A stretch of DNA of 64,000 bases from a virus. How positions within the stretch are numbered: the stretch's first letter is position 1; every line of letters starts with the position of its first letter. A program made the translations under genes and the position numbers. The notes beneath the pieces are model-generated. The model was not told the DNA's origin and ran no database searches. It was given only the letters and a program-made list of their open reading frames with translations. The stretch lies in IMG/VR virus record IMGVR_UViG_3300030497_000001; one strand, written 5' to 3'. Positions 10-18,242 of the stretch are shown one piece after another.

Positions 10-420
10 ATGGCACAAGATTCAAAGTATCACGCATTCTCTGTAAGCCGTCATACATATCACGTTTACGACTATGTATTCAATAACTATCATGGTCAAG
101 ATAAAGAGCTTATGTTGTGGGTTGCGATGCTCCATGATACAGGTAAGCATTTCTGTAAGAACTTTAAGAATCGTAAAGGTGAGCCATCTAGATATGCAAA
201 CTTCATTGGTCATGAACATGTCTCTGCTCAACTAGCAGTGCATGTCCTTAAACGACTAGGATTTAATACCGCATTTATACATCAAGCAACAACTCTGATT
301 CAGTTTCATATGTACTTACTTGATGAAAGAGCTAATCGTGACAAGCTTATGAAACAAGTAGGAAAAGATATGTTTGACAAACTAGAGTTACTGCGTGAAG
401 CAGATACTCTAGCACACTAA
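10..420 (+). CDS. HD-domain metal-dependent phosphohydrolase (possibly 5'-truncated by the window edge)
   Basis: HD-superfamily motifs in order: SRHTYH, LHDTGK, GHEH, FHM, EAD. The layout resembles the HD domain of CCA-adding enzymes. The frame stays open back to nt 1, so the true start may lie upstream. Confidence 0.7.
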   Translation: MAQDSKYHAFSVSRHTYHVYDYVFNNYHGQDKELMLWVAMLHDTGKHFCKNFKNRKGEPSRYANFIGHEHVSAQLAVHVLKRLGFNTAFIHQATTLIQFHMYLLDERANRDKLMKQVGKDMFDKLELLREADTLAH

Positions 421-432
421 GGAGGAATTGGA

Positions 433-726
433 ATGATTGAAACATTTAAAAAGTGGTTTGGTAAAAAGGAAGAAGAGAAAATTGAAGAGGTTAAGCCGAC
501 CTTTGACTACATAGTTATCTTTGCAATGAAAGACGGTAGTTATGTAGAGGGTCTTGCAGTTAATTGGGAGAATGCAGATGAAGCATCTGATAGAATTATC
601 ACCCTGCTTGAACAGCGTGAATGGTTTGGTACTGAATCTCCAACTGGTGAAGAGTTAATCCTTAGGTCAAGCAATATTGATAGAGCCACTGTAAAACCAG
701 AACCATTCAGAGAACATCAAAACTAA
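433..726 (+). CDS. hypothetical protein with N-terminal FKKWFGKKEEE motif
   Basis: ORF with an AGGAGG RBS 7 nt upstream of the ATG. No recognisable domain. Confidence 0.7.
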   Translation: MIETFKKWFGKKEEEKIEEVKPTFDYIVIFAMKDGSYVEGLAVNWENADEASDRIITLLEQREWFGTESPTGEELILRSSNIDRATVKPEPFREHQN

Positions 727-762
727 TACCATACTAAACTATATGATAAAGGGGAATGTAAT

Positions 763-1368
763 ATGACAAACAATACAAATAACGAGACTAAAAACCAAGA
801 GACAAAGGCATCAACATCTACGATTAAACGTGATTTCATCTTGAATGAAAATGTTACTGAATCCTCTGTTAAAGATATCGTCACTGGTATTCTAGCAGTT
901 AATCGCCACGATGATAAGAAACAGAAAGAAGACCCTAGCTATGTGCGTGAGCCAATCCATTTAACTGTTAGCTCATATGGTGGAAGTGCATATGACGGAT
1001 TTGGATTAACAGCAGTGATTGACTCATCTGAAACACCAGTTTACACATACTGCTACAGCAAAGCAATGAGTGCAGGATTAGTAATCTTTTCAGCAGGTCA
1101 CAAACGCTTTGCTCACCCAATGGCACGATTCATGTACCATGAGGTTGCAACAGGTCTTCATGGAAAACTAACTCAATTAAAAGATGATTTAGTTGAGATT
1201 CAAAATCTTCAAGATACATATGATGGGTACTTGCTATCTGTGTCCAATCTTCCAAAACATATCATGGATGAGAAAAACAAATATCATTCTGATTGGTACT
1301 TCTCTGGAACAGATGCATTCAACTATGGATTAGTGGATGAACTAATCACAACAAAACGAAATAAATAA
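763..1368 (+). CDS. ClpP-family (S14) serine protease, copy 1
   Basis: ClpP core motifs are present: Ser in KAMSAG, His in RFMYHEV, Asp in HSDWYFSG..YGLVDE. The N-terminus is N/T/K-rich. RBS AAAGGGG. Confidence 0.8.
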   Translation: MTNNTNNETKNQETKASTSTIKRDFILNENVTESSVKDIVTGILAVNRHDDKKQKEDPSYVREPIHLTVSSYGGSAYDGFGLTAVIDSSETPVYTYCYSKAMSAGLVIFSAGHKRFAHPMARFMYHEVATGLHGKLTQLKDDLVEIQNLQDTYDGYLLSVSNLPKHIMDEKNKYHSDWYFSGTDAFNYGLVDELITTKRNK

Positions 1369-1386
1369 TAAAGGGGTAATTGAATT

Positions 1387-2694
1387 TTGGATATCAATAA
1401 AATCTATGGTGTATTTTCACAGCTACAAGAAACGTCTGCAAAGACAGGTAAGGAAGCTATCTTAAAACGACATAAGGGTGATGAGGATATTCTCAAAGCC
1501 CTAAACTTCCTTCTTAATTCATTCATCACAACAGGTATCTCAACTAAGAAGATGAGTAAAGAAATTGTGTTGAAAGGCGATGCGAACTATCAACCAATCC
1601 AAGACTTTAACCACTTACTTACATATGTAGAAGAAAACAATAGTGGTCGTGATTTTACTATACATATGATTCAAGAGTTTGCTAATAAGCATGAAGAACA
1701 TATTGCAGAGTTTATCAAGAAGTTTGTAACAAAGGATTTAAAACTTGGAATCTCTGAAAAGACTGTAAATAAGATTTACGGCAAAGGTACGATTCCTGCA
1801 TTCGCTGTAATGTTAGCAGAATCATTTGCTAAGAAAGAAGCGAAAGTAACAGGTAAATTCTTTATCACTCTTAAACTGGATGGAAACCGATGTGTTGCGA
1901 TTCGTGAAGGCAATACAATTAAATTCTTCACACGTCAAGGGCAACCAATCTTTGACATGGTTGATTTAGAAGCACAGTTTATGAATCTACCAGAAGGATA
2001 TGTATATGATGGAGAGCTTTTACTTATCAATACAGAGAACTTACCATCTGATAAGCTATTCAGAGCTACACAAAAGGTTGTGCGTAAAGATGGTGAAAAG
2101 AAAGATTTAGAGTTTCATATCTTTGATATGTTACCAGTAGCAGAGTTTTACGATGGAAAATCTAAACTTACATATGAGAAGCGTAGAAATCAATTGGGCG
2201 TGCTAGAACAACATGTAGCAGGTCAAGCTAATATCCATATTCTACCAGTATTGTATGAAGGAACAAATAAAGAAATGATTGCACACTTCATGAAGTGGGT
2301 AGAAGAGAACGGTCATGAAGGATTAATGGTCAACACTGCTGATGGTTTATATCTCAACAAACGTACTGACGGTCTATTAAAAGTCAAGAAATTTAAGACA
2401 GCAGACCTTCTATGTATGAGTGTAGAGAAATCTATTGACGGTCAATTTGAAGGATTGCTAGGTCGTATTAATGTTGAGTATAAAGGTAATTTAGTAGGTT
2501 GTGGTAGTGGATTTACAATTGATGAACGTCAAAAATTCATCAACAATCCAGATGAGATTGTAGGAAAAATCATCGAAGTACAATTCTTCGAAGAATCAAC
2601 AGATGAGAAAACTGGTCAACTGTCACTTCGTTTCCCTGTATTCAAAGGTATTCGACATGATAAAGGCATTGAAGACATTAACTATGGAGAGTGA
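1387..2694 (+). CDS. ATP-dependent DNA ligase
   Basis: Adenylation motif I KLDGNR, EGLMV motif, LLKVKKF motif V, and a C-terminal OB-like GCGSGFT..ER segment. TTG start 9 nt after AAAGGGG. Confidence 0.85.
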   Translation: MDINKIYGVFSQLQETSAKTGKEAILKRHKGDEDILKALNFLLNSFITTGISTKKMSKEIVLKGDANYQPIQDFNHLLTYVEENNSGRDFTIHMIQEFANKHEEHIAEFIKKFVTKDLKLGISEKTVNKIYGKGTIPAFAVMLAESFAKKEAKVTGKFFITLKLDGNRCVAIREGNTIKFFTRQGQPIFDMVDLEAQFMNLPEGYVYDGELLLINTENLPSDKLFRATQKVVRKDGEKKDLEFHIFDMLPVAEFYDGKSKLTYEKRRNQLGVLEQHVAGQANIHILPVLYEGTNKEMIAHFMKWVEENGHEGLMVNTADGLYLNKRTDGLLKVKKFKTADLLCMSVEKSIDGQFEGLLGRINVEYKGNLVGCGSGFTIDERQKFINNPDEIVGKIIEVQFFEESTDEKTGQLSLRFPVFKGIRHDKGIEDINYGE

Positions 2695-3250: not shown

Positions 3251-3664
3251 ATGAGAGAAAGTATTTTAGTTTTATATTCTGTGAATGACCTTGCAAGCTT
3301 CACTGCAAAAGAAAAGATGATTAACGCATTGAAAACAACTATCTTAGAAAAAGGAACGAGTTTGAAATATGAAAAGCAGACACGCAATATTCATGAGTTT
3401 GCATTTGAAAATTGGGATAGAATTGTGATTATGCCAGTGGGAACACCAATACATGGTATGCGTATGACACATTTATTCCTTTCAGAAGAGGTATTTGAAT
3501 TAGGTAATATCGACAGATATATTGAAGATTGGTGTCTGCCAAATATTGTAACTAGTGATATGTATGGTGGAAGCAATCCGAGTGATAGAACTTATGTGTT
3601 TGGTTTGAAAGATGGAGAATTAAATGTAGATTTTTATCAAAAAGATGTTGACGAAAGCAAATAA
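3251..3664 (+). CDS. hypothetical protein
   Basis: ORF with a GGAGAA RBS. No recognisable domain. Confidence 0.65.
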   Translation: MRESILVLYSVNDLASFTAKEKMINALKTTILEKGTSLKYEKQTRNIHEFAFENWDRIVIMPVGTPIHGMRMTHLFLSEEVFELGNIDRYIEDWCLPNIVTSDMYGGSNPSDRTYVFGLKDGELNVDFYQKDVDESK

Positions 3665-3676
3665 TAATTATATAAT
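3648..3676 (+). promoter_or_regulatory. sigma-A-type promoter (TTGACG-N17-TATAAT)
   Basis: -35 TTGACG at 3648-3653, 17-nt spacer AAAGCAAATAATAATTA, -10 TATAAT at 3671-3676. Lies just upstream of the Prs-like gene. Confidence 0.6.
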
Positions 3677-3705
3677 AAAGACATCAAATGAAAGGGAGAG
3701 ATAAT

Positions 3706-4584
3706 ATGATTAAAGTAAATGATAAGTTAGTAGAGTTTGAAACATTCCCCAATGGTGAAGCGTTGTTGGTGAAAGAGAGTTTACAAGGTAGTTTAAAAGA
3801 CGGAAGAGATAATGTTGTGCACTTCAAGTATGAAAATGATGCAGACTTAATCAAACTTATGTTTGTTAAGCAACATATCGACAGTCTTACAGGAATGTTT
3901 GATATGAAGATTGCCTTATACATATACTACATGCCTTATAGCAGAATGGATAGAAGCGAAAACTTATCTCCATTCACATTGAAACATGTTGCAAAACTTA
4001 TCAATGACTTAAAATTTAATCAAGTGTTTGTCATTGAACCTCACTCTGATGTTACTCCTGCTGTGCTAGATAGAGCAGAATCAGTATTTGTCAACTTTGA
4101 CTTAATCGAAAAGGTTAAAGAGGAAGTTGGGTTTGATGAGAACGAAGATTACATAATGTTTCCAGATGCAGGAGCATCCAAGCGTTATAGCAAGATGAAA
4201 GCTAAGAACGTTGCAATTGGTCACAAAGAACGAGATTTTGAAACTGGTAAAATCATAGGTTTCAATCTCATCTTGAATAACGGTCTGGCAACAGGAAATA
4301 AAGTTATCATCGTAGATGATATGACATCTTATGGTGGCACATTCGTACATAGTGCAAAAGCTCTTGCTGAAAAAGGGTTTGATGAGATTTACTTACTAGT
4401 TGCTCATGCAGAGAACAGCGTATTACATGGTAATCCAAAAACAGGAATCAACCTGTTTGACCATATCGACAAACTATTCACTACAGACAGTATTTTAACA
4501 GAGCACAACAATTGGGAGTTTAAGAAATTTGAACCACAATTGAAAATCTATAGTTTGGAGGATTATGTGAATGGGAAACTATGA
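3706..4584 (+). CDS. ribose-phosphate pyrophosphokinase family protein (Prs-like; candidate ADP-ribose diphosphokinase Adps of NARP1)
   Basis: PRPP-binding loop VIIVDDMTSYGGTF and overall Prs-like length. ATG at 3706 is preferred over 3688 because the GGGAGAG RBS sits 5 nt upstream. Confidence 0.8.
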   Translation: MIKVNDKLVEFETFPNGEALLVKESLQGSLKDGRDNVVHFKYENDADLIKLMFVKQHIDSLTGMFDMKIALYIYYMPYSRMDRSENLSPFTLKHVAKLINDLKFNQVFVIEPHSDVTPAVLDRAESVFVNFDLIEKVKEEVGFDENEDYIMFPDAGASKRYSKMKAKNVAIGHKERDFETGKIIGFNLILNNGLATGNKVIIVDDMTSYGGTFVHSAKALAEKGFDEIYLLVAHAENSVLHGNPKTGINLFDHIDKLFTTDSILTEHNNWEFKKFEPQLKIYSLEDYVNGKL

Positions 4585-4804
4585 AATCGGTGAGAAAGTA
4601 CGAATAGTCAGAGAGGTTTATGGTCATGGGTTTGAAATTGGCGAAACAGTAATTATCAAATCAATAGAGATAGAACCTTTCGATGGCAGTCTAAGCATCT
4701 TAGCCGTTACAGAAACAGATGATATCGGTTGGTGTTTAGGAGAAGAAGAGATTGAAAAAATAAATGATAGTTGGATTTTAGACCCATTAAAGGAGGAAGA
4801 ATAA
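4571..4804 (+). CDS. small SH3/KOW-like paralog A
   Basis: Motif G-E-x-V-x-I-V..GH-x-F-x-IGE-x-V-x-I ... D-x-W-x-L..EEI-x-x-I is shared with the next two ORFs. GGAGGA RBS. Confidence 0.7.
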   Translation: MGNYEIGEKVRIVREVYGHGFEIGETVIIKSIEIEPFDGSLSILAVTETDDIGWCLGEEEIEKINDSWILDPLKEEE

Positions 4805-4805
4805 T

Positions 4806-5003
4806 ATGTGGGAAGTTGGAGAAGTTGTGGAGATTATTGACGACTTAAATGGTCACATGTTTTATATTGGTCAACGTGTAAGAATTAGAGCGTTACATGA
4901 AAATGGTGACGTTGCTTCGGCAGAAAGCCTTGACGATAGTGAAGATTATTGGTTTCTCAACCAAGATGACATTAAGAAAATAGAAGAACAGGAGGAAGAA
5001 TAG
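4806..5003 (+). CDS. small SH3/KOW-like paralog B
   Basis: Same motif as paralog A. The junction AGGAGGAAGAATAATATG is nearly identical to the next junction. Confidence 0.7.
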   Translation: MWEVGEVVEIIDDLNGHMFYIGQRVRIRALHENGDVASAESLDDSEDYWFLNQDDIKKIEEQEEE

Positions 5004-5004
5004 T

Positions 5005-5187
5005 ATGAGATTCAAAGAGGGAGATATTGTGAAGGTAGTTGCGAATACTACTGCACACGAATTTAGAATTGGAGAACATGTGCGTATCACAGTTACAGAT
5101 GAGGATTTGGGAGAGTACACAGCAGAACACCTTGACGGAAGCGATTTCTGGTATCTTGACGAAGAAGAAGTAGAATCTATTAACTAA
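5005..5187 (+). CDS. small SH3/KOW-like paralog C
   Basis: Same motif as paralogs A and B. Junction AGGAGGAAGAATAGTATG. Confidence 0.7.
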   Translation: MRFKEGDIVKVVANTTAHEFRIGEHVRITVTDEDLGEYTAEHLDGSDFWYLDEEEVESIN

Positions 5188-5210
5188 TATAAAACTAGGA
5201 GAGTGTTATT

Positions 5211-6947
5211 ATGGTAAAAACAAAATTTATTAAACCTGCATCTTTATTATGTGATTTCTACAAAGTGAGTCATAGAGTACAGTATCCTTTTGCAACGGAA
5301 TTTATTTACAGTACGTTTACCCCACGCTCTAACAAGTATTTCAAAATTGCAGACAAGGTTGTAATGTTTGGATTGCAAGCATTCATTAAGAAATACTTGA
5401 TTGAATACTTTAATACATATTTCTTCCAACGTAGAAAAGAAGATGTTATTGCAGAGTATGAGCGTTATATCCGATTCACTTTAGGTGATGAGAATCCAGA
5501 CTCTAGTCATATTAAAGAGTTATGGGAACTTGGATATTTACCAGTTGAGATTAAAGCGTTAAAAGAGGGAACTTTAGCACCAATCAAAACTCCAATGTTA
5601 ACGGTAGTAAATACAGATAAGAAATTTTTCTGGGTTACTAACTACTTAGAAACTATCATTTCAAATGAGATTTGGTTACCGATGACATCTGCAACAATTG
5701 CTTATCAGTATCGTAAAGTTTTAGATGAGTATGCATTAAAAACTACTGGTAGCACTGACGGTGTAATCTTCCAAGGTCATGATTTCTCAATGCGTGGAAT
5801 GGCTTCATTAGAATCTGCAATGGCTAGTGGTGCAGGTCACTTACTATCATTCGTAGGAACTGATACAATTCCTGCAATCATGTATCATGAAGAGTTTTAC
5901 AATGCAGATATCGAAAAAGAATTAGTTGGAACATCTATTCCTGCTACAGAGCATTCAGTAATGTGTGCTAATGCAGATGAGACTTTAGATGAGACAGAGA
6001 CATTCAGACGATTCATGACAGAGGTCTACCCAACTGGTATCTTCTCAATCGTATCTGATACATATGACTTCTGGGATAACGTAGGTCGAGTGCTTCCTGC
6101 ACTTAAAGATACTATCATGAGTCGTGATGGTAAAGTTGTTATCCGACCAGATAGTGGCGACCCTGTAGATATCTTATGTGGCACGCACTTCGAAGACTTA
6201 ACTAATCAGAGATGGTGTGAAACATTAGAAGATGCGAAAGATTTATTCTATGATATGATGATGGAAGACCTTAGAGAAAGAACACCTCATGGAGAGTATG
6301 GAGAGTCAGAAATCTATGGTGCATTCAAATATGAAGATAAATATTATGAGATGGAGATTGACGTTGAATATAATCGCTATGACAAACAGTATTACTTCAT
6401 TGAAGAACATAAATTAAGTAGATTTGAAGAGTTTGAGCCAAGCCTTCAAGACTTAGGTCTAGTAGAAGTGCTTTGGAATATCTTTGGTGGAACTGTCACA
6501 GAACAAGGATATAAATTATTAGACCCTCATATCGGTGCAATCTATGGCGACAGCATCACAGTTGAGCGTGCAACAACGATTGTTAAACGATTAGCAGAGA
6601 AAGGATTCGCATCTACTAACGTAGTATTTGGCATTGGTAGCTTCACTTACCAATATAATACACGTGATACATTTGGATTTGCGATGAAGGCTACTTGGGC
6701 ACAGATTGATGGTGTCGAGAAGCAAATCTTCAAAGACCCAAAAACAGATAGCGGTCTAAAGAAATCACAAAAAGGACGTGTAGTTGTAATTGATTCCCCA
6801 GAAGGAATTACATACAAAGACGGTCTATATAAAAAGGATGCAGATGCATTGGATTACATCGACTTACTACAACCAGTATTCCGTAATGGACAGTTGTTAG
6901 TTGACCAATCGTTATCTGAAATTCGTGAGCGTTTACAAAATCAGTAA
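5211..6947 (+). CDS. nicotinamide phosphoribosyltransferase family protein (NadV/NAMPT-like; candidate Namat of NARP1)
   Basis: N-terminal LLCDFYKVSH, central GHDFSMRG and C-terminal GDSIT/GIGS-type segments are typical of NAMPT. At 578 aa it is longer than I recall typical NAMPTs being (not checked); the excess appears to be an acidic/aromatic segment around residues 330-420. Confidence 0.8.
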   Translation: MVKTKFIKPASLLCDFYKVSHRVQYPFATEFIYSTFTPRSNKYFKIADKVVMFGLQAFIKKYLIEYFNTYFFQRRKEDVIAEYERYIRFTLGDENPDSSHIKELWELGYLPVEIKALKEGTLAPIKTPMLTVVNTDKKFFWVTNYLETIISNEIWLPMTSATIAYQYRKVLDEYALKTTGSTDGVIFQGHDFSMRGMASLESAMASGAGHLLSFVGTDTIPAIMYHEEFYNADIEKELVGTSIPATEHSVMCANADETLDETETFRRFMTEVYPTGIFSIVSDTYDFWDNVGRVLPALKDTIMSRDGKVVIRPDSGDPVDILCGTHFEDLTNQRWCETLEDAKDLFYDMMMEDLRERTPHGEYGESEIYGAFKYEDKYYEMEIDVEYNRYDKQYYFIEEHKLSRFEEFEPSLQDLGLVEVLWNIFGGTVTEQGYKLLDPHIGAIYGDSITVERATTIVKRLAEKGFASTNVVFGIGSFTYQYNTRDTFGFAMKATWAQIDGVEKQIFKDPKTDSGLKKSQKGRVVVIDSPEGITYKDGLYKKDADALDYIDLLQPVFRNGQLLVDQSLSEIRERLQNQ

Positions 6948-6954
6948 ACAATAG

Positions 6955-6985
6955 AGGGTAGTCGAAAGACTGCCCTTAAATTTTA
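6955..6985 (+). terminator. rho-independent terminator (GAAA tetraloop)
   Basis: AGGGTAGTC-GAAA-GACTGCCCT followed by a T-rich tail. One G-U pair forms only in the + strand RNA. Confidence 0.7.
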
Positions 6986-7497: not shown

Positions 7498-7941
7498 ATG
7501 ATTAAAATTATTAAAGCAGACTTAGTAAAGGCAATGAAAGAGAAAGATGAGTTTAAGAAATCTGTATTGCGTATGTTGTTAGCTAAGTTAGAGCAGGAAA
7601 AAGTTAAATTAAAATTAGGAACTGTAGAAGATTTAACAGAAGCACAAGTAGTTGAAACTGTTGTGAAAGCAGGCAAGGAGTTAGATAAAGAGATTGAAGA
7701 GTATCAAAAAGTTGGTCGTGAAGTAGATAAGCAGTTAAACGAAAAAGAAATTTTAACAGCTTACTTGCCAAAGCAATTAACAGAAGCAGAAATTCAAGAC
7801 GAAGTAAATCATGCTTTAGAATTAGTAGAACGTGGTGAATTAACTGATGTAAACAAGGCAAAAGGCTATTTATCTCAAAAATTAAAAGGTAAAGCCGATA
7901 TTAAGGTAGTTATGCAGATTTTAGCAAAAAGCCAAAAATAA
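7498..7941 (+). CDS. GatB/YqeY-domain protein
   Basis: Close collinear resemblance to bacterial YqeY: DLVKAMKEKD..KSVLRMLLA...YLPKQLTEAE...KGKAD. 147 aa, AAGGAG RBS. Confidence 0.75.
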   Translation: MIKIIKADLVKAMKEKDEFKKSVLRMLLAKLEQEKVKLKLGTVEDLTEAQVVETVVKAGKELDKEIEEYQKVGREVDKQLNEKEILTAYLPKQLTEAEIQDEVNHALELVERGELTDVNKAKGYLSQKLKGKADIKVVMQILAKSQK

Positions 7942-8683: not shown

Positions 8684-9187
8684 ATGAACACAAAATGCCA
8701 AGTTGTACTATGGGGAGAAACAATTAGTGAGCACGATTCATATGTGGAAGCTGTGCTTGAAGCAGAAAAATGGCACAGAGAAACTGGATGCCCATACAAA
8801 GTGAGAGGGAATAACGAAATGACATTAAAATATAAACACATCGCTATTGATTGGGATGGCACTATCGTAGAAGATGGAGCGTACCCAGAAGCAGGAGAAT
8901 TTAAACCACATGTAGTAGAAGTGCTTAAACGAATCTGGGATGAATGTGGTGAGATTGTGATTTGGACTTGCCGTAACGGTGATGAGCAGATTGCAACAAT
9001 TGAAAAGAAACTTGCTTCGGTAGGAATCTATGAATATAAGATTAATCAACCATTTGACCACTTTACAAATATCTATGGTGGCGATAATGCAAGAAAAATC
9101 TTTGCAGACGTATATATTGATGACAGAGCAATCGGTGCGGTAATTGATTGGTATGAAATCGAAAAACAACTATTTGGGGAAATTTAA
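8684..9187 (+). CDS. HAD-superfamily phosphatase (capless, DxDGT type) with ~45-aa N-terminal extension
   Basis: Motif I IDWDGT, motif II IVIWTCR, motif IV VYIDDRA. GGAGG RBS. Confidence 0.7.
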   Translation: MNTKCQVVLWGETISEHDSYVEAVLEAEKWHRETGCPYKVRGNNEMTLKYKHIAIDWDGTIVEDGAYPEAGEFKPHVVEVLKRIWDECGEIVIWTCRNGDEQIATIEKKLASVGIYEYKINQPFDHFTNIYGGDNARKIFADVYIDDRAIGAVIDWYEIEKQLFGEI

Positions 9188-9693: not shown

Positions 9694-10068
9694 ATGAACT
9701 TAATGAGTATTATTCCGAATCTAAAAATCCGTAAGGTGAAAGAAACGCCAAAGAAGAAGGTTGAAAAGAAGCAGAGCAAACAGTTGAGCTTTAACTTTGA
9801 ACAAGAACCTCATGAGAAGGTAATGGAAAATCTTACAGAGCGACAAAAGATGGTGTATCAATATTTAAAATCAACTTATGTTGATGGGGCGACTGCAAAA
9901 GAATTATCTGTAGCATTATTCAAAGAAGGATTAACTCCTTCACCAGAGCGTAATAGTACGCATCCACGATTAAATGAATTAGTAGACTTAGGTCTTGTTA
10001 AAGTAATTGGCAAAAAAGACTGTCAATTTACAGGACGAAAAGTTACTATTTACAAAAGCAAATTATAA
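9694..10068 (+). CDS. winged-helix (MarR-like) DNA-binding protein
   Basis: LTERQKMVYQYLK..GATAKELS...HPRLNELVDLGLVKVIG...GRKVTIY is a typical wHTH layout. Confidence 0.55.
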   Translation: MNLMSIIPNLKIRKVKETPKKKVEKKQSKQLSFNFEQEPHEKVMENLTERQKMVYQYLKSTYVDGATAKELSVALFKEGLTPSPERNSTHPRLNELVDLGLVKVIGKKDCQFTGRKVTIYKSKL

Positions 10069-10077
10069 TGATATAAT
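10049..10077 (+). promoter_or_regulatory. sigma-A-type promoter (TTTACA-N17-TATAAT, extended TG) inside the 3' end of the preceding CDS
   Basis: -35 at 10049-10054, spacer AAAGCAAATTATAATGA, -10 at 10072-10077. Confidence 0.6.
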
Positions 10078-10096
10078 AAAGGGGGAGCAATACATA

Positions 10097-10930
10097 ATGA
10101 CGAAAGCTGATTTAATTTACAAAGACAATCTTCGAGAGATACTTATCAATGGTAGTTGGGATGAGAACCCAAGACCTAAGTATGAAGATGGGACACCTGC
10201 TCATTCAAAATTCATTACACAAGTGTTTGAGAAGTATGACCTATCAAAAGGAGAATTGCCAATCACAACTCTAAGACCAATATACATCAAGAAAGCAATT
10301 GATGAGATTTGTTGGATTTATCAAGACCAGACAAGTGACTTGGCAGTCTTAGAAGAAAAGTATGGTATCTACTGGTGGAGAGATTGGGGGTTAGAAGATG
10401 GCACAATCGGTCAACGATATGGAGCTACAGTAAAGAAATACGATTTACTAAACAACTTCTTGGAAGGGATTAGAAAAGACCCATTCGGAAGACGACACAT
10501 TCTTAGCTTGTGGCAAGTATTAGATTTCCAATCAACAGAAGGACTTCTACCTTGTGCATTTCAAATCATCGGAAGTTGCAGAAAGATAGAAGATGACATG
10601 TACTTTGACTTAACTCTAGTACAACGTAGCAGTGATTATGCTGTTGCAGGTCATATCAATATGATTCAATATGTTGCATTGCAAATGATGATTGCTCATC
10701 ACTTAGGAATGAAGGTTGGTACTTTTGCTAGATTTACACAAAATCTACATATCTATGACCGTCATCTTGACCAAGCATATGAGATGTTAAAGCGTGAACC
10801 TGCTAAAGAGCAACCGCAATTAGTATTAAATGCAGAAGGTAAATCATTCTATGAAATTACTTCTGACGATTTTGAATTAGTAAATTACAATCCAGTCAAA
10901 CCACAATTAAAGTTTGACTTAGGAATCTAG
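10097..10930 (+). CDS. thyA: thymidylate synthase (ThyA type)
   Basis: GRRHILSLWQ, LPCAFQ (catalytic Cys) and QRSSDYAVAGHINMIQY, collinear with B. subtilis ThyA. ATG at 10097 follows a GGGGGAG RBS. Confidence 0.9.
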   Translation: MTKADLIYKDNLREILINGSWDENPRPKYEDGTPAHSKFITQVFEKYDLSKGELPITTLRPIYIKKAIDEICWIYQDQTSDLAVLEEKYGIYWWRDWGLEDGTIGQRYGATVKKYDLLNNFLEGIRKDPFGRRHILSLWQVLDFQSTEGLLPCAFQIIGSCRKIEDDMYFDLTLVQRSSDYAVAGHINMIQYVALQMMIAHHLGMKVGTFARFTQNLHIYDRHLDQAYEMLKREPAKEQPQLVLNAEGKSFYEITSDDFELVNYNPVKPQLKFDLGI

Positions 10931-10941
10931 GAGGAAGAAAG

Positions 10942-11178
10942 ATGAAAGTAGTAGTAACAGAATTAGTAAGTGATGATTTTGAATATGAGATGCTAGAGAT
11001 TGTCATTGACGATACAACTAAATTTAAAGTTGATTGTGCAACAGATTCTATGGAAGACAATTTCTTATCTCGAAACTTTTCAGACTGCTATGACATTCCT
11101 GCTTTACTAGAGAAAGCATGGTTAGCAGGTAAGAATGGCGAAGACTTTAAACTACATTATGTAAAAGGAGACAATTAA
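10942..11178 (+). CDS. hypothetical acidic protein
   Basis: ORF with an AGGAGG RBS. Confidence 0.6.
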   Translation: MKVVVTELVSDDFEYEMLEIVIDDTTKFKVDCATDSMEDNFLSRNFSDCYDIPALLEKAWLAGKNGEDFKLHYVKGDN

Positions 11179-11182
11179 TAAT

Positions 11183-11749
11183 ATGGGTATTACATTAATC
11201 GCATGTACAGAAATCAATGGTGGAATTGGAGATAACGAGAATAATTTGTTATTCGACCTTCCACGTGACAGAAAACACTTTATGTCAGCAACTAGCGGAA
11301 AGGTAGTAGTGATGGGTAGAAAGACTTGGGATTCATTACCAGATGACAAACGTCCTCTACCTAAACGAAAGAATTACGTGTTAACACGTGATTTAGATTG
11401 GTCGGCAAAGGGAGCTAAAACGGTACACTCTGTACGAGAGGTTTTAGAATTAGCAAAAACACGTGATGTATTTATCATCGGTGGTGGAGAGATTTATGAA
11501 CAATTTATGCCACATGCAGACCGATTGATTATGACTCATGTACATACTGTGCATTTTGATGCACGTGTATTCTTCCCAGAAATTGATGTGCGACAATGGC
11601 ATCTAGTCCATGCACAGAAAAATGAAGAAGATGAGAAACATCCACATGAGTTTACATTTGCTACGTACACAAGACGTACAGATGATAAGCCAGAGCTTGG
11701 AAAAATGATTGAAGTAGAAATGGTAAAAGAAAACCAAGAAAACAACTAA
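11183..11749 (+). CDS. dfrA: dihydrofolate reductase with C-terminal extension
   Basis: IGDNENNLLFDLPRDRKHF, VVMGRKTWDSLP, NYVLTR and FIIGGGEIY motifs. Confidence 0.85.
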   Translation: MGITLIACTEINGGIGDNENNLLFDLPRDRKHFMSATSGKVVVMGRKTWDSLPDDKRPLPKRKNYVLTRDLDWSAKGAKTVHSVREVLELAKTRDVFIIGGGEIYEQFMPHADRLIMTHVHTVHFDARVFFPEIDVRQWHLVHAQKNEEDEKHPHEFTFATYTRRTDDKPELGKMIEVEMVKENQENN

Positions 11750-11761
11750 GGAGTGTTGTGC

Positions 11762-12439
11762 ATGTACGGAATGCAAGAACCAAGTCGAAAAATTTTAATC
11801 TCTAGAGGGATTGATGAAGCATTAGCAGAAAGCGTTATCGCACAGATTGTTGAGATTAACGACCTTGATGCACAAAGAGCAGAAGCTTTAAAAGAGTACC
11901 GACCAGAACCAATTGAGATTTTCATTAACTCTGGTGGAGGAAGTGTTACCGATGGTTTTGCAATCATCGGTGCAATGGAGATGTCTGATACTCCAATCAT
12001 TACATATGCATTAGGATTAGTAGCATCTATGGCTCTAGCAATCTTTGTTGCAGGAGATGTACGAATTGCTCACCGTTATGCACGATTAATGTATCACTCA
12101 ATCTCTTACGGAATGTTAGGTCACATCACAGAGCACGAACAACAAATGAAAGAATGTGACCTGCTTCAACGTCAATACAACAGCTTAATGTATGACCGTA
12201 CTAAACTTACGAAAGAGAAATTAGATAGCATTCGTGCTATGAAACATGATTACTACTTCGGTGCAAGAGAAGCTGTGAAGCTTGGTGTTGCTCATGACTA
12301 CATGAAAAAACCAGAACAGCTTGAAGTAATGTTGCAAGAAGAAGCAGAGGTGCAAGAAGCTATGAAAGTAATTGAAGAAAGAGTAGCTAGTGCAGAGCAA
12401 AAGATTACACCAGATTCAATTATCAATAAAAAAGCATAA
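11762..12439 (+). CDS. ClpP-family (S14) serine protease, copy 2, with acidic C-terminal extension
   Basis: Ser in LVASMA, His in RLMYHSI, Asp in KHDYYFGAREAVKLGVA. ATG at 11762 lies 8 nt after AAGGAG; the GTG at 11753 is too close to the RBS. Confidence 0.8.
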   Translation: MYGMQEPSRKILISRGIDEALAESVIAQIVEINDLDAQRAEALKEYRPEPIEIFINSGGGSVTDGFAIIGAMEMSDTPIITYALGLVASMALAIFVAGDVRIAHRYARLMYHSISYGMLGHITEHEQQMKECDLLQRQYNSLMYDRTKLTKEKLDSIRAMKHDYYFGAREAVKLGVAHDYMKKPEQLEVMLQEEAEVQEAMKVIEERVASAEQKITPDSIINKKA

Positions 12440-12464
12440 GTGGTAGATTTTCTACCACTTTTCT
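12440..12464 (+). terminator. rho-independent terminator
   Basis: GTGGTAGA-TTT-TCTACCAC followed by TTTTCTCTTT. Confidence 0.75.
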
Positions 12465-12465
12465 C

Positions 12466-12494
12466 TTTACAAAAACAAAAGATAATGATAAGAT
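12466..12494 (+). promoter_or_regulatory. sigma-A-type promoter (TTTACA-N17-TAAGAT, extended TG)
   Basis: -35 at 12466-12471, spacer AAAACAAAAGATAATGA, -10 at 12489-12494. Confidence 0.55.
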
Positions 12495-12518
12495 ATTAAA
12501 CATAAGGAGGGGAGAACG

Positions 12519-12749
12519 GTGTCAAGTTTTAACATGTGGAAACACACGATACAAGTAACAGACCCAACAAAAACAGGACTAGTTAAGAAAGTACAGAACA
12601 AAGAAGCTTGCGGTTGGGAATGTGTAAAGCCGTTACATACAGTACAGATTAAAGATGGATATATGGGTGGAAGAAATAAAGACCATCCTTGCTACTTTAG
12701 TCGAACAGAATTTGCAGTAGTTATGAAAAAGATTGGGAGAGTGGTTTAA
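12519..12749 (+). CDS. hypothetical protein
   Basis: GTG start after a GGAGGGGAG RBS. Confidence 0.55.
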   Translation: MSSFNMWKHTIQVTDPTKTGLVKKVQNKEACGWECVKPLHTVQIKDGYMGGRNKDHPCYFSRTEFAVVMKKIGRVV

Positions 12750-13327
12750 TGTTAGTAACATACACAGGAAAGATTTTCGATTATAAAAATATTAAAAAGG
12801 ATGATATCTGCATTGACGATGTGATTCATAGTATCTCGAACCTCAATAGATTTGTAGGACATTCTTCACGACCATATAGTGTGGGAGAACATACTTTATG
12901 GTGTGCACTAATGGCTCACAAATTAGGATATACAACACGTCAAATCCTTTTAACACTGATTCATGATTTTGAGGAAGCCTATACTGGTGATTGCCCAACA
13001 CCTCTGAAAGAACTGCTACCAGAATTTAAAGAGATTGCCAAGAAAGTTGAACATGCAATCTATGAACATCTTGAAATTGAACCTCCAACAGAGGAAGAAC
13101 ATGCGTTAGTGAAACGTGTTGATGTAACTATGCTTGTAGTTGAAATGAGAGATTTAACACTTCATGACTTTGAAGAGTTTATTGATGAGCATACATATGA
13201 AGATATTATCTTTGACCCAGAGTTTGATTTAAAGAAAGTAACACCTAATGTCAAACCTACTTTAAATATGATGTTTAATATTATGATTGACAAATACAGA
13301 GAGGAACTTGCCAATGAAGAAGTTTAA
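12749..13327 (+). CDS. HD-domain phosphohydrolase (YfbR-like 5'-deoxynucleotidase candidate)
   Basis: RF.GH..RPYSVGEHT ... LIHDFEEAYTGDCPTP ... D motifs. TAATG overlap with the previous gene. Confidence 0.7.
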   Translation: MLVTYTGKIFDYKNIKKDDICIDDVIHSISNLNRFVGHSSRPYSVGEHTLWCALMAHKLGYTTRQILLTLIHDFEEAYTGDCPTPLKELLPEFKEIAKKVEHAIYEHLEIEPPTEEEHALVKRVDVTMLVVEMRDLTLHDFEEFIDEHTYEDIIFDPEFDLKKVTPNVKPTLNMMFNIMIDKYREELANEEV

Positions 13328-13610
13328 TTTCTATGCAGGTTTGAAGCAGGAGCATTATCATCTAGAAGCTTTAACAGATGTAATGCTTCCATCTTTATTT
13401 GATGCGTTTGAGTTTGCTAGAGACTATGCAACATGCAGATACTATCAAAATCCAGAACGTGATATCTTAGAAATCATGGAGAAGGAGGATGTCAAAGAGG
13501 ATAAAGCTCATATGATATTCTTGAAAGAAATGTACGATTCCATTATCTTCCACTTTGAAGAAGTGGTTGAGATTAATGGGGAAATAATTGAAGTGATTGA
13601 ATATCGCTAG
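13314..13610 (+). CDS. hypothetical protein
   Basis: ATG at 13314 after GAGGAA, overlapping the HD gene by 14 nt. The 13287 start in the track lacks an RBS. Confidence 0.55.
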   Translation: MKKFNFYAGLKQEHYHLEALTDVMLPSLFDAFEFARDYATCRYYQNPERDILEIMEKEDVKEDKAHMIFLKEMYDSIIFHFEEVVEINGEIIEVIEYR

Positions 13611-13619
13611 GAGGAACTT

Positions 13620-14240
13620 ATGAGAAAGAAAGAACTGATACTTGGGACAATGAGTGCATCCAAGTCTGCACAATTAATGATGCAGGCTTTTAACTTAGAA
13701 CGACAAGGGAAGAAAGTCTTAGTATTCAAACCAGAAACAGACACAAGAGATGGAGCTTTTGTTGCATCTAGAGCCATGCAAGAAAAACGTCCTGCAATCG
13801 TAATCAAGAAGTCAGATATTGACAAAATGAAACGATTGATTAAGATTGAGAAACCAGATGTTATCATGTTAGATGAATTACAATTCTTTACAGTTGAACA
13901 GATTGATGAATTATCATTTATATCTACACTGGAAATAGTTGACATTTACGCATATGGTTTACTAATCTCATATACTGGTAAAATGTTTGAACCAACTAAG
14001 CGTGCAATCGAATGTGGATTCCGTATTTCGCCAATCACAATGCAATGTGATAGATGCACAAATGATGCAACGAATCACTTATTGTATATGGAAGGCGTTC
14101 TGCAAATTGATGGTGATGGTATTACTGTTGAGGACTTTGAGAAGAAAGAACAGGAATATCTGTCAGTCTGCTACTCATGCTATCATGATGCAGTTGAAGT
14201 ACATCTTCTTGAAACAGAAGAAAACAAAAGTAAAAAATAA
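13620..14240 (+). CDS. tdk: thymidine kinase
   Basis: P-loop-like GTMSASKS, VIMLDELQFF (DExQFF), and a C-terminal Cys cluster CDRC...CYSC. Confidence 0.8.
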   Translation: MRKKELILGTMSASKSAQLMMQAFNLERQGKKVLVFKPETDTRDGAFVASRAMQEKRPAIVIKKSDIDKMKRLIKIEKPDVIMLDELQFFTVEQIDELSFISTLEIVDIYAYGLLISYTGKMFEPTKRAIECGFRISPITMQCDRCTNDATNHLLYMEGVLQIDGDGITVEDFEKKEQEYLSVCYSCYHDAVEVHLLETEENKSKK

Positions 14241-14251
14241 TCATATAATTG

Positions 14252-14280
14252 TTGACTAACAACTACGAACCTGCTATAAT
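14252..14280 (+). promoter_or_regulatory. sigma-A-type promoter (TTGACT-N17-TATAAT)
   Basis: -35 at 14252-14257, -10 at 14275-14280. The -10 lies inside the 5' arm/loop of the hairpin at 14268-14296. Confidence 0.55.
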
Positions 14281-14304
14281 AGATACATAGCAGGTTATTT
14301 TAAT
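14268..14304 (+). terminator. rho-independent terminator overlapping the promoter
   Basis: AACCTGCTAT (14268-14277) / ATAGCAGGTT (14287-14296): perfect 10-bp stem, 9-nt loop, then ATTTTAAT. Confidence 0.6.
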
Positions 14305-14322
14305 ATAATAGGAGGGGTTTAG

Positions 14323-14820
14323 ATGAGCTACAATGTTGGGGATATTGTTAAAAAGGTAAATTCTTATGGGATGGAATATCATATTGTCATTGATTTAGAG
14401 AGAGTTGATAAGACATACTTTTACGAAATCATGCAAATGTATCCAGTCGCAACTACATCCAGAAGACAGTTTATGGAGCAAAGTGAACTAGCTATGGTTG
14501 CAGAGGTTGGCGATATCAACTACTCAACTATCATTGGAATCATTGAGGACAAGCGGAAGGATAGAGGGATGGATGAAAGGGCTGATTATTGGGATTACAT
14601 CGAAGTCACAAAGTCTCTTGAAAAGTACAGAAAGTATGATGTACAGCCAGAACTTAATCTGCCAGTAAAGGATGATATCATTCAATATCATAAGCTTGAA
14701 GACAAGGATAAGTGCTTAGATGCACTGAATGACCTTGACACATTACATAAGATGTTTGGCGATGAAGCATATCTGCAACTCAAAGAAGTTGTGATTAAAA
14801 GATTGAAAGAATTAAAATAG
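14323..14820 (+). CDS. hypothetical protein
   Basis: ORF with an AGGAGGGG RBS, immediately upstream of the polymerase gene. Confidence 0.65.
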   Translation: MSYNVGDIVKKVNSYGMEYHIVIDLERVDKTYFYEIMQMYPVATTSRRQFMEQSELAMVAEVGDINYSTIIGIIEDKRKDRGMDERADYWDYIEVTKSLEKYRKYDVQPELNLPVKDDIIQYHKLEDKDKCLDALNDLDTLHKMFGDEAYLQLKEVVIKRLKELK

Positions 14821-14833
14821 GAGTGTTGCATTA

Positions 14834-17800: not shown

Positions 17801-18208
17801 AACCTTCGTGCCTACGAGAAAGCTGTACGTGAGAACCCACCTGCTAAGATTGAACTTTACGAACAGATTGCATTTGAGAAAGACAATTTAGGTTATGCAG
17901 TTTCCACATGGCATAATGTAAATGGTGCGTTTGCTTTAGTCATTGACATCAACAAGAAGTACACACCTAAAGTGACACTTTATCAAATCAAGACAGGTAA
18001 AGAGATAGTAGTTAAAGTATCTAAGAAGAAATTCTTCTCTGAATACGATGACTTGCTGTATGTGGGAGATATCATCAAGGTGGTAGAGACAGAAGAGAAA
18101 AACGGATGGAGAAATGTGGACGGTAAATGGGTCGAAGACACATCTAAGCAGGAGCTATGGCTAGAACTAGCAGAGCTAATCCGTAAGAGCAATAAACGTA
18201 GTGCATAA
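14834..18208 (+). CDS. dnaE: DNA polymerase III alpha subunit (DnaE-type, PHP domain)
   Basis: PHP motifs HLHSH and SEHG. Polymerase core GRGSVNGSLIAYILGIT, PDIDIDF, KLDILGL. 1124 aa. Confidence 0.9.
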   Translation: MENYVVYHLHSHISNLTAGQGADSVTKYEAYIKRAKELGMNAMAFSEHGSVMNWIKKKQLMEKSDGDLQGMKYIHANEVYLTRKIEQEMVEDKETGLLIPSGKLNLERDNYHYMLLAKNFDGVQELNQLTSDSFSKEDGHFYYNPRITFDELKNTSDNILMTSACLASPLWKMYKKSQNEFGQTINQELKVELEEMLHWMGQNRHRMFLEIQYHSHPEQVEFNRMLLQLSKDLKIPLIAGTDTHSLDQEHAELRKIFLDSKDASYGNEDDFDLTFKDYAGVVEMFEQQGALPRNVYLEAIHNTNVMADMVEEFTLDKTPKYPKMYDNPIEVFQKQINEGVVKRGINKFPAEKKKEYFARIKEEFDTYVKLDAVDYMLLQKNIIDWCHKNDIYQGYGRGSVNGSLIAYILGITEMDSIKHNLNFFRFLNPDRISLPDIDIDFPPSRRQEVIDYVASLEGVDFAEIITFNTKALKGSIRIVGKGLGMPLDVVDTIAKAVEEFENKQRIDEKWKKMYPELFKYVDLMCGVIESMGSHPSGYVVSPIDLSTNVSTVYTKESKYRVTAVNMKELDGENYVKLDILGLANIELINDTCKLAGIERLTPDNIDIKDMDVWKSLRESTLGVFQFESDSAYAYLKQLFSDETLDYIKTNIGDVDYIDLLSMANGAIRPSGNSYRYELAQGIAKDNGHPALNEALKPTLGYLIFQEQIMKFLTDFCDHTGAESDTVRRGLAKKEGTEQYLPKIHDGFISYMGEKYGESAEHSEEILQSFLQVINDASRYGFSTNHSQPYSYIGYIGAYLRYHYPLEFMTTILNIQDDDKDKTTKIVNYAKKKDIEIKSIEFGKSRASYTLNREEQNVYKGIASIKFLNRKVADELYELAHAKDYDRNDWVGLLVDIFKTSADTRQMEILIRLDFFKEFGDKEVLLEIYLAMADKKKANTELYPEFADKEIVETKVNKKTGETTYKPKTIKRPLKFTNDLKENTQLIRLENLRAYEKAVRENPPAKIELYEQIAFEKDNLGYAVSTWHNVNGAFALVIDINKKYTPKVTLYQIKTGKEIVVKVSKKKFFSEYDDLLYVGDIIKVVETEEKNGWRNVDGKWVEDTSKQELWLELAELIRKSNKRSA

Positions 18209-18209
18209 T

Positions 18210-18238
18210 TTGACAGAAGCAACAAGTTATAGTATAAT
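18210..18238 (+). promoter_or_regulatory. consensus sigma-A promoter (TTGACA-N17-TATAAT)
   Basis: -35 at 18210-18215, -10 at 18233-18238. Starts 2 nt after the dnaE stop. Confidence 0.6.
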
Positions 18239-18242
18239 GAGG

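Follow-up and report, generated by a model that had tools for sequence, protein, structure and literature searches.

NARP1 is a published counter-defence pathway for NAD+ reconstitution, in which a Prs-like ADP-ribose pyrophosphate synthetase (Adps) acts together with a NAMPT-like nicotinamide ADP-ribose transferase (Namat). The Adps of the SPbetaL1 system (WIT26982.1 Adps, WIT26983.1 Namat; PDB 9W5W, 9W5X) converts ADPR and ATP to ADPR-PP; with ribose-5-phosphate, no product is formed according to the figure legend, whereas the running text names PRPP (10.1101/2024.02.11.579819). SPbetaL1 Namat keeps the activity from PRPP to NMN in vitro, and FADO becomes sensitive to DSR2 when adps is deleted. 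For the ICP1 Adps, the ADPR and ATP contacts as well as the catalytic lysine were defined (PMC13586617). Namat proteins carry the signature GS-X-phi-X-phi-X-phi-TRD with an aromatic X at positions 3 and 7 (PMC12774641), and an Arg, Lys or Tyr at the third position of the clamp loop supplies the adenine-stacking residue. In 97% of the Adps clade, a Namat gene is located in the immediate vicinity.

Extended operons contain an additional gene in or beside adps-namat, namely the Macro-domain ADPR-1''-phosphate phosphatase Adpp in NARP1-AP of Vibrio phage Gary and the RyR-domain cADPR glycosidase RyDEP of mycobacteriophage DyoEdafos. NARP2 (KVP40 NadV + NatV) starts from PRPP and pairs NadV with Nmnat, not with Adps. 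NARP3 (PnuC + NadR; Bas30_86/87), which is reported mainly from Enterobacteriaceae phages, has the purpose of NAD+ restoration in common with NARP1, but uses other enzymes and imported nicotinamide riboside as substrate (PMC13464706).

The window analyzed here is a stretch of 64,000 nucleotides from the virus record IMGVR_UViG_3300030497_000001. Judging by homology, its unit at 3648-6985 is very probably a NARP1 operon for NAD+ reconstitution, carried by a Bacillus cereus-group siphovirus of the Tsamsa/Kirov type.

Organization of the adps-namat unit

By ORF calls and motif scans, adps and namat were located within one putative promoter-to-terminator unit on the + strand (3648-6985). It consists of five tightly packed genes, each with an RBS, which are bounded by one promoter-like and one terminator-like site:

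3648..3676, + strand: sigma-70-type promoter-like site 5' of adps, TTGACG-17-TATAAT, 11/12 positions matching
3706..4584, + strand: adps, putative ADP-ribose pyrophosphate synthetase (Prs-like), 292 aa, from homology and conserved residues
4571..4804, + strand: YorP-like gene 1, 77 aa, SH3-like; phrog_10201 1.6e-11, HMM 65 bits, GGAGGA RBS
4806..5003, + strand: YorP-like gene 2, 65 aa, SH3/Tudor-like; phrog_10201 1.5e-17
5005..5187, + strand: YorP-like gene 3, 60 aa; phrog_10201 8.9e-16, HMM 91 bits
5211..6947, + strand: namat, putative nicotinamide ADP-ribose transferase (NAMPT-like), long form, 578 aa, from homology and model
6186..6440, + strand: 85-aa insert, Namat residues 326-410, extra relative to SPbetaL1 Namat (491 aa)
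6636..6668, + strand: Namat selectivity-clamp helix motif GSFTYQYNTRD, residues 476-486, identical to SPbetaL1
6954..6985, + strand: intrinsic-terminator-like hairpin (6954-6977; 10-bp stem, 5 GC pairs) with T-run

The promoter-like site ranks second-best within 3-8 kb, and the terminator-like hairpin begins 7 nt 3' of the namat stop codon. Across the region, promoter-like sites are not enriched (22 observed vs 20.6 expected from shuffled sequence); since the consensus scan is no richer than the shuffles, the promoter- and terminator-like sites are regarded as only plausible. The sequence-only reading had placed a Prs-like and a NAMPT-like gene in one promoter-to-terminator unit, and the ORFs are as it described them, with the sites themselves plausible. 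The five genes are predicted to be co-transcribed. For adps, the ATG at 3706 is the likely start due to the AAAGGGAGAG RBS just 5' of it and to homologues starting with MIK; the ATG upstream of it, at 3688, is an improbable alternative.

Both enzymes are encoded in the SPbetaL1 locus as well, with gene order and strand conserved. There, the adps stop codon overlaps the namat start, whereas three small genes intervene in the window and namat lies 626 bp downstream of adps. As adps and namat are adjacent in most NARP1 loci, this separation is a point against the NARP1 assignment. The three intervening genes were absent from the sequence-only reading.

The nearest relative is Kirov (NC_071041, gp214-gp217), with 89% nucleotide identity over the locus and 97% and 85% identity for Namat and Adps, respectively. 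It shares the long-form Namat, the flanking genes and the presence of YorP-like genes between the enzymes. Kirov differs by having two instead of three YorP-like genes, the third window paralogue being without Kirov orthologue, and by an extra 79-aa gene just 5' of adps.

The two enzymes

Adps matches phrog_619 (5e-77) and is, besides the similarity to Kirov, 58-60% identical to the FADO, 56% to the SPbetaL1, 30% to the Bas63 and 29% to the ICP1 protein. Among cellular Prs proteins, the best PDB entry reaches E = 2e-13 and the B. subtilis Prs 7e-7. The protein scores under every NCBIfam Prs cut-off (TIGR01251, 93 bits vs a 113-bit cut-off) and far below every Prs equivalog. Pairwise identities and profile scores place it nearer to the validated Adps proteins than to cellular Prs and assign it to the Adps clade.

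In the alignment, K174 corresponds to the catalytic beta-hairpin lysine (K162 in SPbetaL1, K185 in ICP1), and F14, R80, H113, D154, D204, D205 and F213 correspond to ICP1 F18, R87, H121, D161, D212, D213 and F221. The ICP1 contact F92 aligns to a gap in all Bacillus-phage Adps. The loop VIIVDDMTSYGGTF begins at residue 200. The PP-loop donor site (ICP1 C215-S220) reads TSYGGT in the window and CDGAAS in ICP1. This departure (C215/D216 to T/S) from the enzyme with known structure counts against the NARP1 assignment. The validated SPbetaL1 enzyme is likewise substituted; its SSFGGT resembles the window loop, which suggests that the Bacillus-phage group has its own version of the PP-loop. The conserved residues point to Adps activity of the window protein.

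Namat comprises the domains PF04095 and PF18127, matches phrog_448 (2e-204) and is 65% identical to SPbetaL1 Namat (PDB 9W5W/9W5X) over 483 aligned residues (E = 3e-205). Its AlphaFold2 model (pLDDT 91.7) gave Foldseek target-normalised TM values of 0.97 for 9W5X, 0.94 for H. ducreyi NadV (HdNadV, PDB 9KE8) and 0.90 for human NAMPT, the predicted structure being nearest to SPbetaL1 Namat. Core residues D15, Y17, F192, R195, D218, H248, R312, D314, G446, D447, G476, S477 and R485 are conserved (SPbetaL1 D13, Y15, F189, R192, D215, H245, R306, D308, G360, D361, G390, S391 and R399). The NAD+ contacts are kept except for 2 of 20, R40 to K42 and A362 to S448, the latter a backbone contact. Together with the catalytic lysine of Adps, the nicotinamide, ribose and phosphate contacts are identical to those of the SPbetaL1 system.

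The clamp loop TPRSNK42-Y43 is, by sequence, the Lys-then-next-residue variant as in Bas63, so that Lys42-Tyr43 stands where SPbetaL1 has Arg40. The clamp helix fits the published Namat signature, and its motif is absent in the controls H. ducreyi NadV (GAQTYQRNTRD) and Xanthomonas-type Nampt (7YQO/8IGZ; GGALLQKVDRD). HdNadV has the Nampt fold and the catalytic core in common with the window protein (44% identity), but bona fide NadV is without the aromatic adenine-binding clamp residues F478/Y482. These features argue for Namat activity of the window protein.

Taken by cut-offs, clamp motif and TM value (0.97), both proteins side with Adps and Namat and not with Prs and NadV. The NARP1 reading proposed earlier is borne out in so far as both are close homologues of the characterised enzymes with the diagnostic residues. 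What was established here for the operon is its gene content and order, the homology of its products, their conserved catalytic and specificity residues, and the fold predicted for them. The composition does not match NARP2 (Nampt + Nmnat), given the presence of Adps, the Adps-associated orthologues and the lack of PF01467 or Nudix in the scanned ORFs; the PnuC and NadR pair of NARP3 was not found in the window ORFs scanned either.

Both enzyme activities and the anti-defence phenotype are predicted by analogy to the characterised homologues. A host defence with NADase activity (Thoeris, DSR1/2, SIR2-HerA, SEFIR and similar) would cleave NAD+ to ADP-ribose and nicotinamide, and Adps would move the beta-gamma pyrophosphate of ATP to the distal ribose of ADP-ribose. 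Namat would then swap the pyrophosphate of the resulting ADPR-PP for nicotinamide and yield NAD+ directly, without an NMN intermediate or NMNAT.

The core finding is correct but already known, as it adds one more Bacillus phage to a published pathway whose closest orthologues are already catalogued: those of Kirov, Tsamsa, Izhevsk and PBC2 are tabulated as Adps and 'Adps-associated' Namat, with Kirov in Tables S1 and S2 (Osterman et al. 2024). Beyond known NARP1, the extras are the three small genes between the enzymes and the 85-residue insert in Namat. Both are lineage-specific additions.

YorP-like genes and the Namat insert

The YorP-like genes each have their own RBS, and the first one overlaps the 3' end of adps, stop codon included, by 14 nt. 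Its L004 orthologue is 96% identical, and the gene 2 orthologues in Kirov, PBC2 and Thrax3 are 68-69% identical. For gene 3, no close orthologue was found in the related loci examined (best 33-44% identity in Kirov, L004, PBC2 and Thrax3), and its identity to the other two paralogues is just 29-35%. The family alignment shows a conserved pattern G-x11-H-x-F-x2-G...W in an SH3-like barrel of about 60 aa. Gene 2 was modelled as a five-strand barrel (AlphaFold2 pLDDT 87), and Foldseek with this model returned generic SH3/Tudor folds only (E >= 0.03) without specific functional match. No Pfam or NCBIfam model matches the three proteins.

Unlike NARP1-AP and RyDEP, the extra genes encode 60-77-aa SH3-like proteins without Macro or RyR domain. 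Macro (PF01661, PF14519, PF20016) and RyR (PF02026) domains were not found in the three intervening and two upstream genes, which have no Pfam match at E <= 0.01. The two small genes directly downstream of namat have none at E <= 0.001, and the third matches YqeY alone. An extended operon of the NARP1-AP or RyDEP type was rejected, as neither domain occurs within two genes of the window NARP1.

The YorP-like genes are probably unrelated moron-like filler, inserted by chance in one lineage and then diversified. Their presence among close relatives is patchy: adps and namat of Tsamsa, Izhevsk and Skywalker have no copy between them, those of Kirov and L004 two, and those of the window, PBC2 and Thrax3 three. 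Other family members occur in unrelated surroundings, beside RecT, ERF, integrase or portal genes, and no functional annotation of the family was found anywhere. The divergence of paralogues that are old yet intact, with own RBS and tight spacing, speaks against chance insertion. So does the recurrence of YorP-like genes at divergent NARP1 loci in two arrangements; in one of these loci, whose enzymes share only 33% identity with those of the window, two copies precede adps.

It is unlikely that the YorP-like proteins are functional NARP1 accessories forming an extended NARP1, although there is the precedent of Adpp and RyDEP for extra genes inserted in such operons. As accessories, they might bind or sequester an ADPR-derived immune signal, supply Adps with a non-canonical product of NAD+ breakdown, or block a host NADase. 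YorP-like genes are confined to the NARP1 operon both in the window and in Kirov, for which 159 kb of the genome were covered, and PBC2 and Thrax3 share the arrangement with three copies. The family has invariant His17, Phe19 and Gly22 and a nearly invariant Trp49, a pattern suggestive of a ligand site. Four of nine informative 50%-identity representatives lie within or abut NARP1 loci vs about 4% expected (binomial P = 4e-4), but this is not an independent count, because NARP1-embedded copies served to build the profile and the sampled loci may share ancestry. Furthermore, one locus (L027) has the dn61-like, YorP-like and YqeY neighbours of a NARP1 locus but no NARP1, a situation better explained by inherited synteny than by functional coupling. 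Among 11 NARP1 loci selected for Namat similarity, 10 have no YorP-like gene, nor do SPbetaL1 and FADO, and the fold is widespread and generic (833 domain matches, often repeats in large proteins).

The NAMPT-like protein had been described as unusually long, with an acidic/aromatic segment around residues 330-420, and this holds: the insert at 326-410 contains 29% Asp+Glu and 20% Phe/Tyr/Trp, compared to 13% and 12% in the remaining protein. The extra length is a conserved and confidently folded insert in the model, with one predicted helix and a three-stranded sheet (block pLDDT 82-96). It is placed in the loop following the R312/D314 strand; this proximity to the ribose-binding strand, which may affect the choice of substrate, is a further point against the NARP1 reading. 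Of the 120 best-scoring clusters at 90% identity, 105 contain the insert, as do 45 phage records, which extend to Gram-negative myoviruses with 30-36% identity. In PBC2, Thrax3 and P0003, Namat is without it, though the N-terminal halves are 96-97% identical to the window.

That the YorP-like proteins add a third type to the NARP1 accessories Adpp and RyDEP, as binder or sponge of an ADPR signal or as NADase blocker, and that the insert may separately be a lid or regulator tuning ADPR-PP use, is quite doubtful. The near-isogenic natural Namat alleles with (Kirov, window) and without insert (PBC2, Thrax3) offer a ready comparison of its role.

NMNAT genes and NAD+ restoration in the lineage

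In 46 other window ORFs scanned, no cytidylyltransferase-like (PF01467), NadR-type kinase or Nudix domain was detected; the scan covered ORFs of up to 600 aa outside the capsid/portal/terminase block (54.9-64 kb), five of the longer ORFs exceeding 800 aa. The earlier observation that no NMNAT is visible in 64 kb thus stands for the ORFs scanned, but it is weak as an argument for NARP1, since every sequenced relative and the NARP1 phage ICP1 encode a NadR-type NMNAT. A NadR-type NMNAT/ribosylnicotinamide kinase is present in 16 of 16 distinct Andregratiavirinae-type phages of the collection, always beyond the part of the genome that is homologous to the window. In Kirov, PnuC and NadR are adjacent at 136.9-138.6 kb (PF04973; PF01467 + PF13521), about 58 kb from NARP1; this neighbourhood was checked in Kirov only and is annotated likewise in Thrax1. 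The validated NARP1 phage ICP1 of Vibrio also carries a NadR homologue (PMC13586617). The proposition that an NMNAT elsewhere in the genome implies classical salvage is therefore invalid, and NMNAT presence or absence cannot discriminate NARP1 from such a pathway.

A classical NARP2-like salvage, with PRPP from the Prs-like enzyme, NMN from the NAMPT-like enzyme and NAD+ from a phage NadR-type or host NMNAT, would agree with the Pfam, NCBIfam and GenBank names (Prs, nicotinate/nicotinamide phosphoribosyltransferase), with NadR in the relatives and with NMN formation by SPbetaL1 Namat, but is highly improbable given the sub-threshold Prs scores, the 56% identity to an Adps yielding no product from ribose-5-phosphate per figure legend, the F478/Y482 clamp residues, the Adps-associated rather than Nmnat-associated clade of the Kirov and Tsamsa orthologues (Osterman et al. 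2024) and the coexistence of NARP1 and NadR in ICP1. Some flux via NMN is conceivable from the PRPP-dependent activity of SPbetaL1 Namat together with NadR in the relatives.

For the NARP1 operon, public annotation still reads Prs and nicotinate phosphoribosyltransferase, and the clamp motif combined with sub-threshold Prs scores provides a quick re-annotation rule. The YorP-like genes are cheap candidates for a new anti-defence activity. NARP1 and a NadR-type enzyme are combined across the Tsamsa-like subfamily and in ICP1, and no discussion of this co-occurrence was found in the literature cited here. With the NARP3-type NadR of its relatives, the lineage of the window probably has two independent ways of restoring NAD+.

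Operon layout and genomic surroundings

[quoted passage not shown] This locus consists of five tightly packed plus-strand genes between a promoter-like site and a terminator-like hairpin. Each of the five is preceded by a Gram-positive-type ribosome-binding site, and the intergenic gaps range from -14 to +23 nt.

Features of the NARP1 operon (window positions)
3648-3676, plus strand: strong promoter-like site (11/12 consensus positions)
3706-4584, plus strand: ORF, Prs-like gene (adps)
4571-4804, plus strand: ORF, small gene 1 (YorP-like)
4806-5003, plus strand: ORF, small gene 2 (YorP-like)
5005-5187, plus strand: ORF, small gene 3 (YorP-like)
5211-6947, plus strand: ORF, NAMPT-like gene (namat), 578 aa
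6954-6977, plus strand: terminator-like hairpin followed by a T-run (from sequence)

The gene coordinates, the PRPP-loop sequence and the length of the NAMPT-like protein in the sequence-only reading were all correct on re-examination. Both enzymes lie in one unit as it had stated, but the three intervening genes had been left unmentioned.

At the start of the window (10-2694 region), a kinase-HD protein is represented by its HD-domain end, with an ATP-dependent DNA ligase at 1387-2694. In Kirov, an RNA ligase, a Pol-beta/RlaP-type nucleotidyltransferase and a subtilase are located just upstream (12718-16798 of L001, a segment of the Kirov genome NC_071041), and together these genes resemble an RNA-repair cluster. 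The early/metabolic region has two separate genes for ClpP-like proteases (PF00574), at 763-1368 (5e-19) and 11753-12439 (8e-27). A motif resembling those of HAD-type phosphatases, IAIDWDGT, occurs in a 167-aa ORF (8684-9187) without a Pfam match at 1e-3; since NARP1 can be extended by phosphatases, this ORF may be of relevance. A dense nucleotide-metabolism/replication block (10007-19108) follows with thymidylate synthase, DHFR, YfbR-like 5'-deoxynucleotidase, thymidine kinase, RuvC and a 1124-aa ORF, named DNA polymerase III alpha from the annotation of the syntenic Kirov gene. Within the structural module, a tyrosine recombinase (48225-49211, minus strand; Phage_integrase and SAM-like domains) directly adjoins the tape-measure gene (38975-48148, 3057 aa), an unusual place for an integrase-type gene.

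Assignment of the two enzymes

The NARP1-type module proposed by the sequence-only reading was supported by Adps/Namat homology, the kept catalytic and contact residues, the clamp motif and the fold of the model. The NARP1 reading is well supported by these enzyme comparisons and because the orthologues of Kirov, Tsamsa, Izhevsk and PBC2 are already listed in the tables of Adps and "Adps-associated Namat" (Osterman et al. 2024).

Judged by its sequence, the Prs-like protein is an Adps. Its phosphoribosyltransferase domains gave only sub-threshold Pfam matches, and it scored under every curated NCBIfam Prs cut-off (e.g., TIGR01251, 93 bits vs. 113). Cellular Prs structures were retrieved with E-values of only 1e-13 to 1e-5. 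The protein is 56% identical to the Adps of SPbetaL1 and 58% to that of FADO. The SPbetaL1 enzyme pyrophosphorylates ADP-ribose; with ribose-5-phosphate it yields no product according to the figure legend, while the running text says PRPP (10.1101/2024.02.11.579819). In FADO, deletion of adps abolishes the escape from DSR2. The catalytic lysine, whose exchange inactivates the enzyme (K162A in SPbetaL1, K185A in ICP1), corresponds to K174. The structurally characterized ICP1 Adps (PMC13586617) holds ADPR and ATP with F18, R87, H121, D161, D212, D213 and F221, all of which are kept when mapped via the numbering of the paper. The PP-loop is the SPbetaL1 version and not that of ICP1.

The NAMPT-like protein is, by sequence and model comparison, a Namat. 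It matches the crystal structures of SPbetaL1 Namat (9W5W/9W5X) with E = 3e-205 and 65% identity over 483 aligned residues. All NAD+-contact residues of the latter are kept except two, namely R40, replaced by K42 followed by Y43 (a clamp loop of the published Lys type), and the backbone contact A362, replaced by S448. Namat is distinguished from Nampt by the motif GS-X-phi-X-phi-X-phi-TRD, with aromatic residues at X that stack on adenine (PMC12774641). The window protein has GSFTYQYNTRD, the same as SPbetaL1, whereas this position reads GAQTYQRNTRD in the bona fide NadV of H. ducreyi and GGALLQKVDRD in the Xanthomonas-type Nampt (7YQO/8IGZ). The AlphaFold2 model (pLDDT 91.7) was superimposed best on Namat (TM 0.97), followed by H. 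ducreyi NadV (0.94) and human NAMPT (0.90).

The extra length of Namat is due to an 85-residue insert (residues 326-410, window 6186-6440), which takes the place of a loop of about nine residues; the immediately preceding strand carries the ribose-binding R312 and D314. Its composition agrees with the acidic/aromatic segment described earlier. The insert is confidently modeled as one helix and a three-stranded sheet, and from the barrel topology it would face the catalytic side. It contains the conserved motifs TPHGEHG, FKYxGKYY, YNRYDKQYYYI and EEFTP. Among the 120 best-scoring protein clusters 105 have the insert, and so do 45 phage records, some of them from myoviruses of Cronobacter, Pectobacterium, Salmonella and Serratia with 30-36% identity. 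The Namats of PBC2 and Thrax3 (loci L036/L037) and the metagenomic Namat P0003 lack it, and their N-terminal halves are 96-97% identical to that of the window; the C-terminal parts of PBC2 and Thrax3 are 88-89% identical. The difference spans the insert and the helix after it. Such near-identical alleles with and without the insert suggest recombinational swapping inside the gene. In the Namat of Bas63, which is validated in vivo, a different, longer insertion could be read from the sequence at the same site, as in a near-identical fragment from ST11, so that insertions are tolerated at this site. An intein or intron origin was rejected, as the insert is in frame, comprises just 85 aa, shows none of the conserved intein terminal residues when its sequence is read, and forms a folded alpha/beta unit kept across distant phages.

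NARP1 and NadR in the same genomes

The sequence-only reading had also argued from the absence of a nicotinamide-mononucleotide adenylyltransferase (NMNAT) in 64 kb. When 46 further ORFs of the window, of up to 600 aa and located outside the capsid/portal/terminase block (54.9-64 kb), were concatenated and compared with Pfam, no cytidylyltransferase-like, NadR-kinase or Nudix domain was revealed; "Serglycin" matches were artefacts of the Gly-Ser linkers joining the ORFs. The absence thus stands for the scanned ORFs, but not as an argument, since the relatives have a NadR-type NMNAT elsewhere. Of the 166-kb Kirov genome, only about 20-84 kb corresponds to the window. Further along, at 136.9-138.6 kb (NC_071041 136928-138645; L002:36699-38416, a segment of this genome), a NadR-type NMNAT/ribosylnicotinamide kinase (PF01467 and PF13521) adjoins a PnuC transporter. 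This is the same pair as that recently named NARP3 (PMC13464706), located outside the region matching the window. Kirov gp203 and gp172, annotated as "nucleotidyltransferase", were rejected as NMNAT, being of the Pol-beta/RlaP type.

NadR was found in 16 of 16 distinct Tsamsa-like phages of the collection (75-100% identity), and the NARP1 phage ICP1 has a homologue (39% identity). Because NadR occurs in all relatives and in ICP1, an NMNAT gene outside the window is to be expected and does not refute NARP1; the proposal that it would imply classical salvage fails. The sequence signatures (clamp motif, Adps/Namat residues) should replace this criterion. Since SPbetaL1 Namat retains some PRPP-to-NMN activity in vitro, a minor flux via NMN and NadR may exist beside NARP1. 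NARP1 itself does not rescue phages from the aRES defence. In the literature examined, no discussion of the co-occurrence of NARP1 with NadR/PnuC was found.

[quoted passage not shown] Both are far from NARP1 and are further ADP-ribose-related functions.

YorP-like genes and novelty of the module

All three proteins encoded between the enzyme genes are members of phrog_10201, with 29-35% mutual identity. No match was found in Pfam, NCBIfam or PDB sequences, a single-sequence word-index search retrieved two proteins only, and tblastn only close relatives. A profile search revealed 833 relatives, some stand-alone (~60-90 aa) and others repeats within large proteins; the SH3-type matches of the multi-domain relatives were weak and no informative fusion partner was seen. 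In the alignment His17, Phe19 and Gly22 are invariant and Gly5, Val25 and Trp49 nearly so. The model (pLDDT 87) is a five-stranded SH3/Tudor-like barrel, and its Foldseek matches in PDB and BFVD were limited to generic SH3/Tudor folds and uncharacterised proteins of phages, none of them a specific structural match.

That these proteins are functional NARP1 accessories is rather unlikely. Within the window, and within the 159 kb examined of the Kirov genome, every copy is located inside the NARP1 operon, where PBC2 and Thrax3 have three copies each and Kirov and L004 (an IMG/VR contig) two each. NARP1 accessory genes have a precedent in RyDEP and in Adpp, a Macro phosphatase carried by 15% of NARP1 operons. 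Eleven family representatives were sampled, mostly in rank order from stand-alone matches, and four of the nine with informative context lie in or beside NARP1 loci, but the sampling favours relatives of the query. In one of the four, L017 (Logan SRR33038053 contig), two copies precede adps, and the enzymes share only ~33% identity with those of the window. The very divergent NARP1 of L017 (2565-5465) is followed by an HD_4 protein, and an RNA ligase and a PNK-like kinase/phosphatase precede the YorP-like pair. However, 10 of 11 NARP1 loci picked by Namat similarity are without the family, likewise SPbetaL1 and FADO, and locus L027 has the same neighbours (dn61-like gene, YorP-like gene, YqeY) without NARP1. 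A YqeY/GatB-like gene (7498-7941; PF09424, 1e-23) is located just downstream of NARP1 in the window; as a YqeY homologue lies beside the YorP-like gene in the NARP1-free L027, the syntenic block exists independently of NARP1.

NARP1 is here a known system correctly identified, not a new one. The novelty does not go beyond lineage-specific decoration, in the form of the YorP-like genes and the Namat insert, and the family-wide pairing of NARP1 with a NadR-type enzyme.
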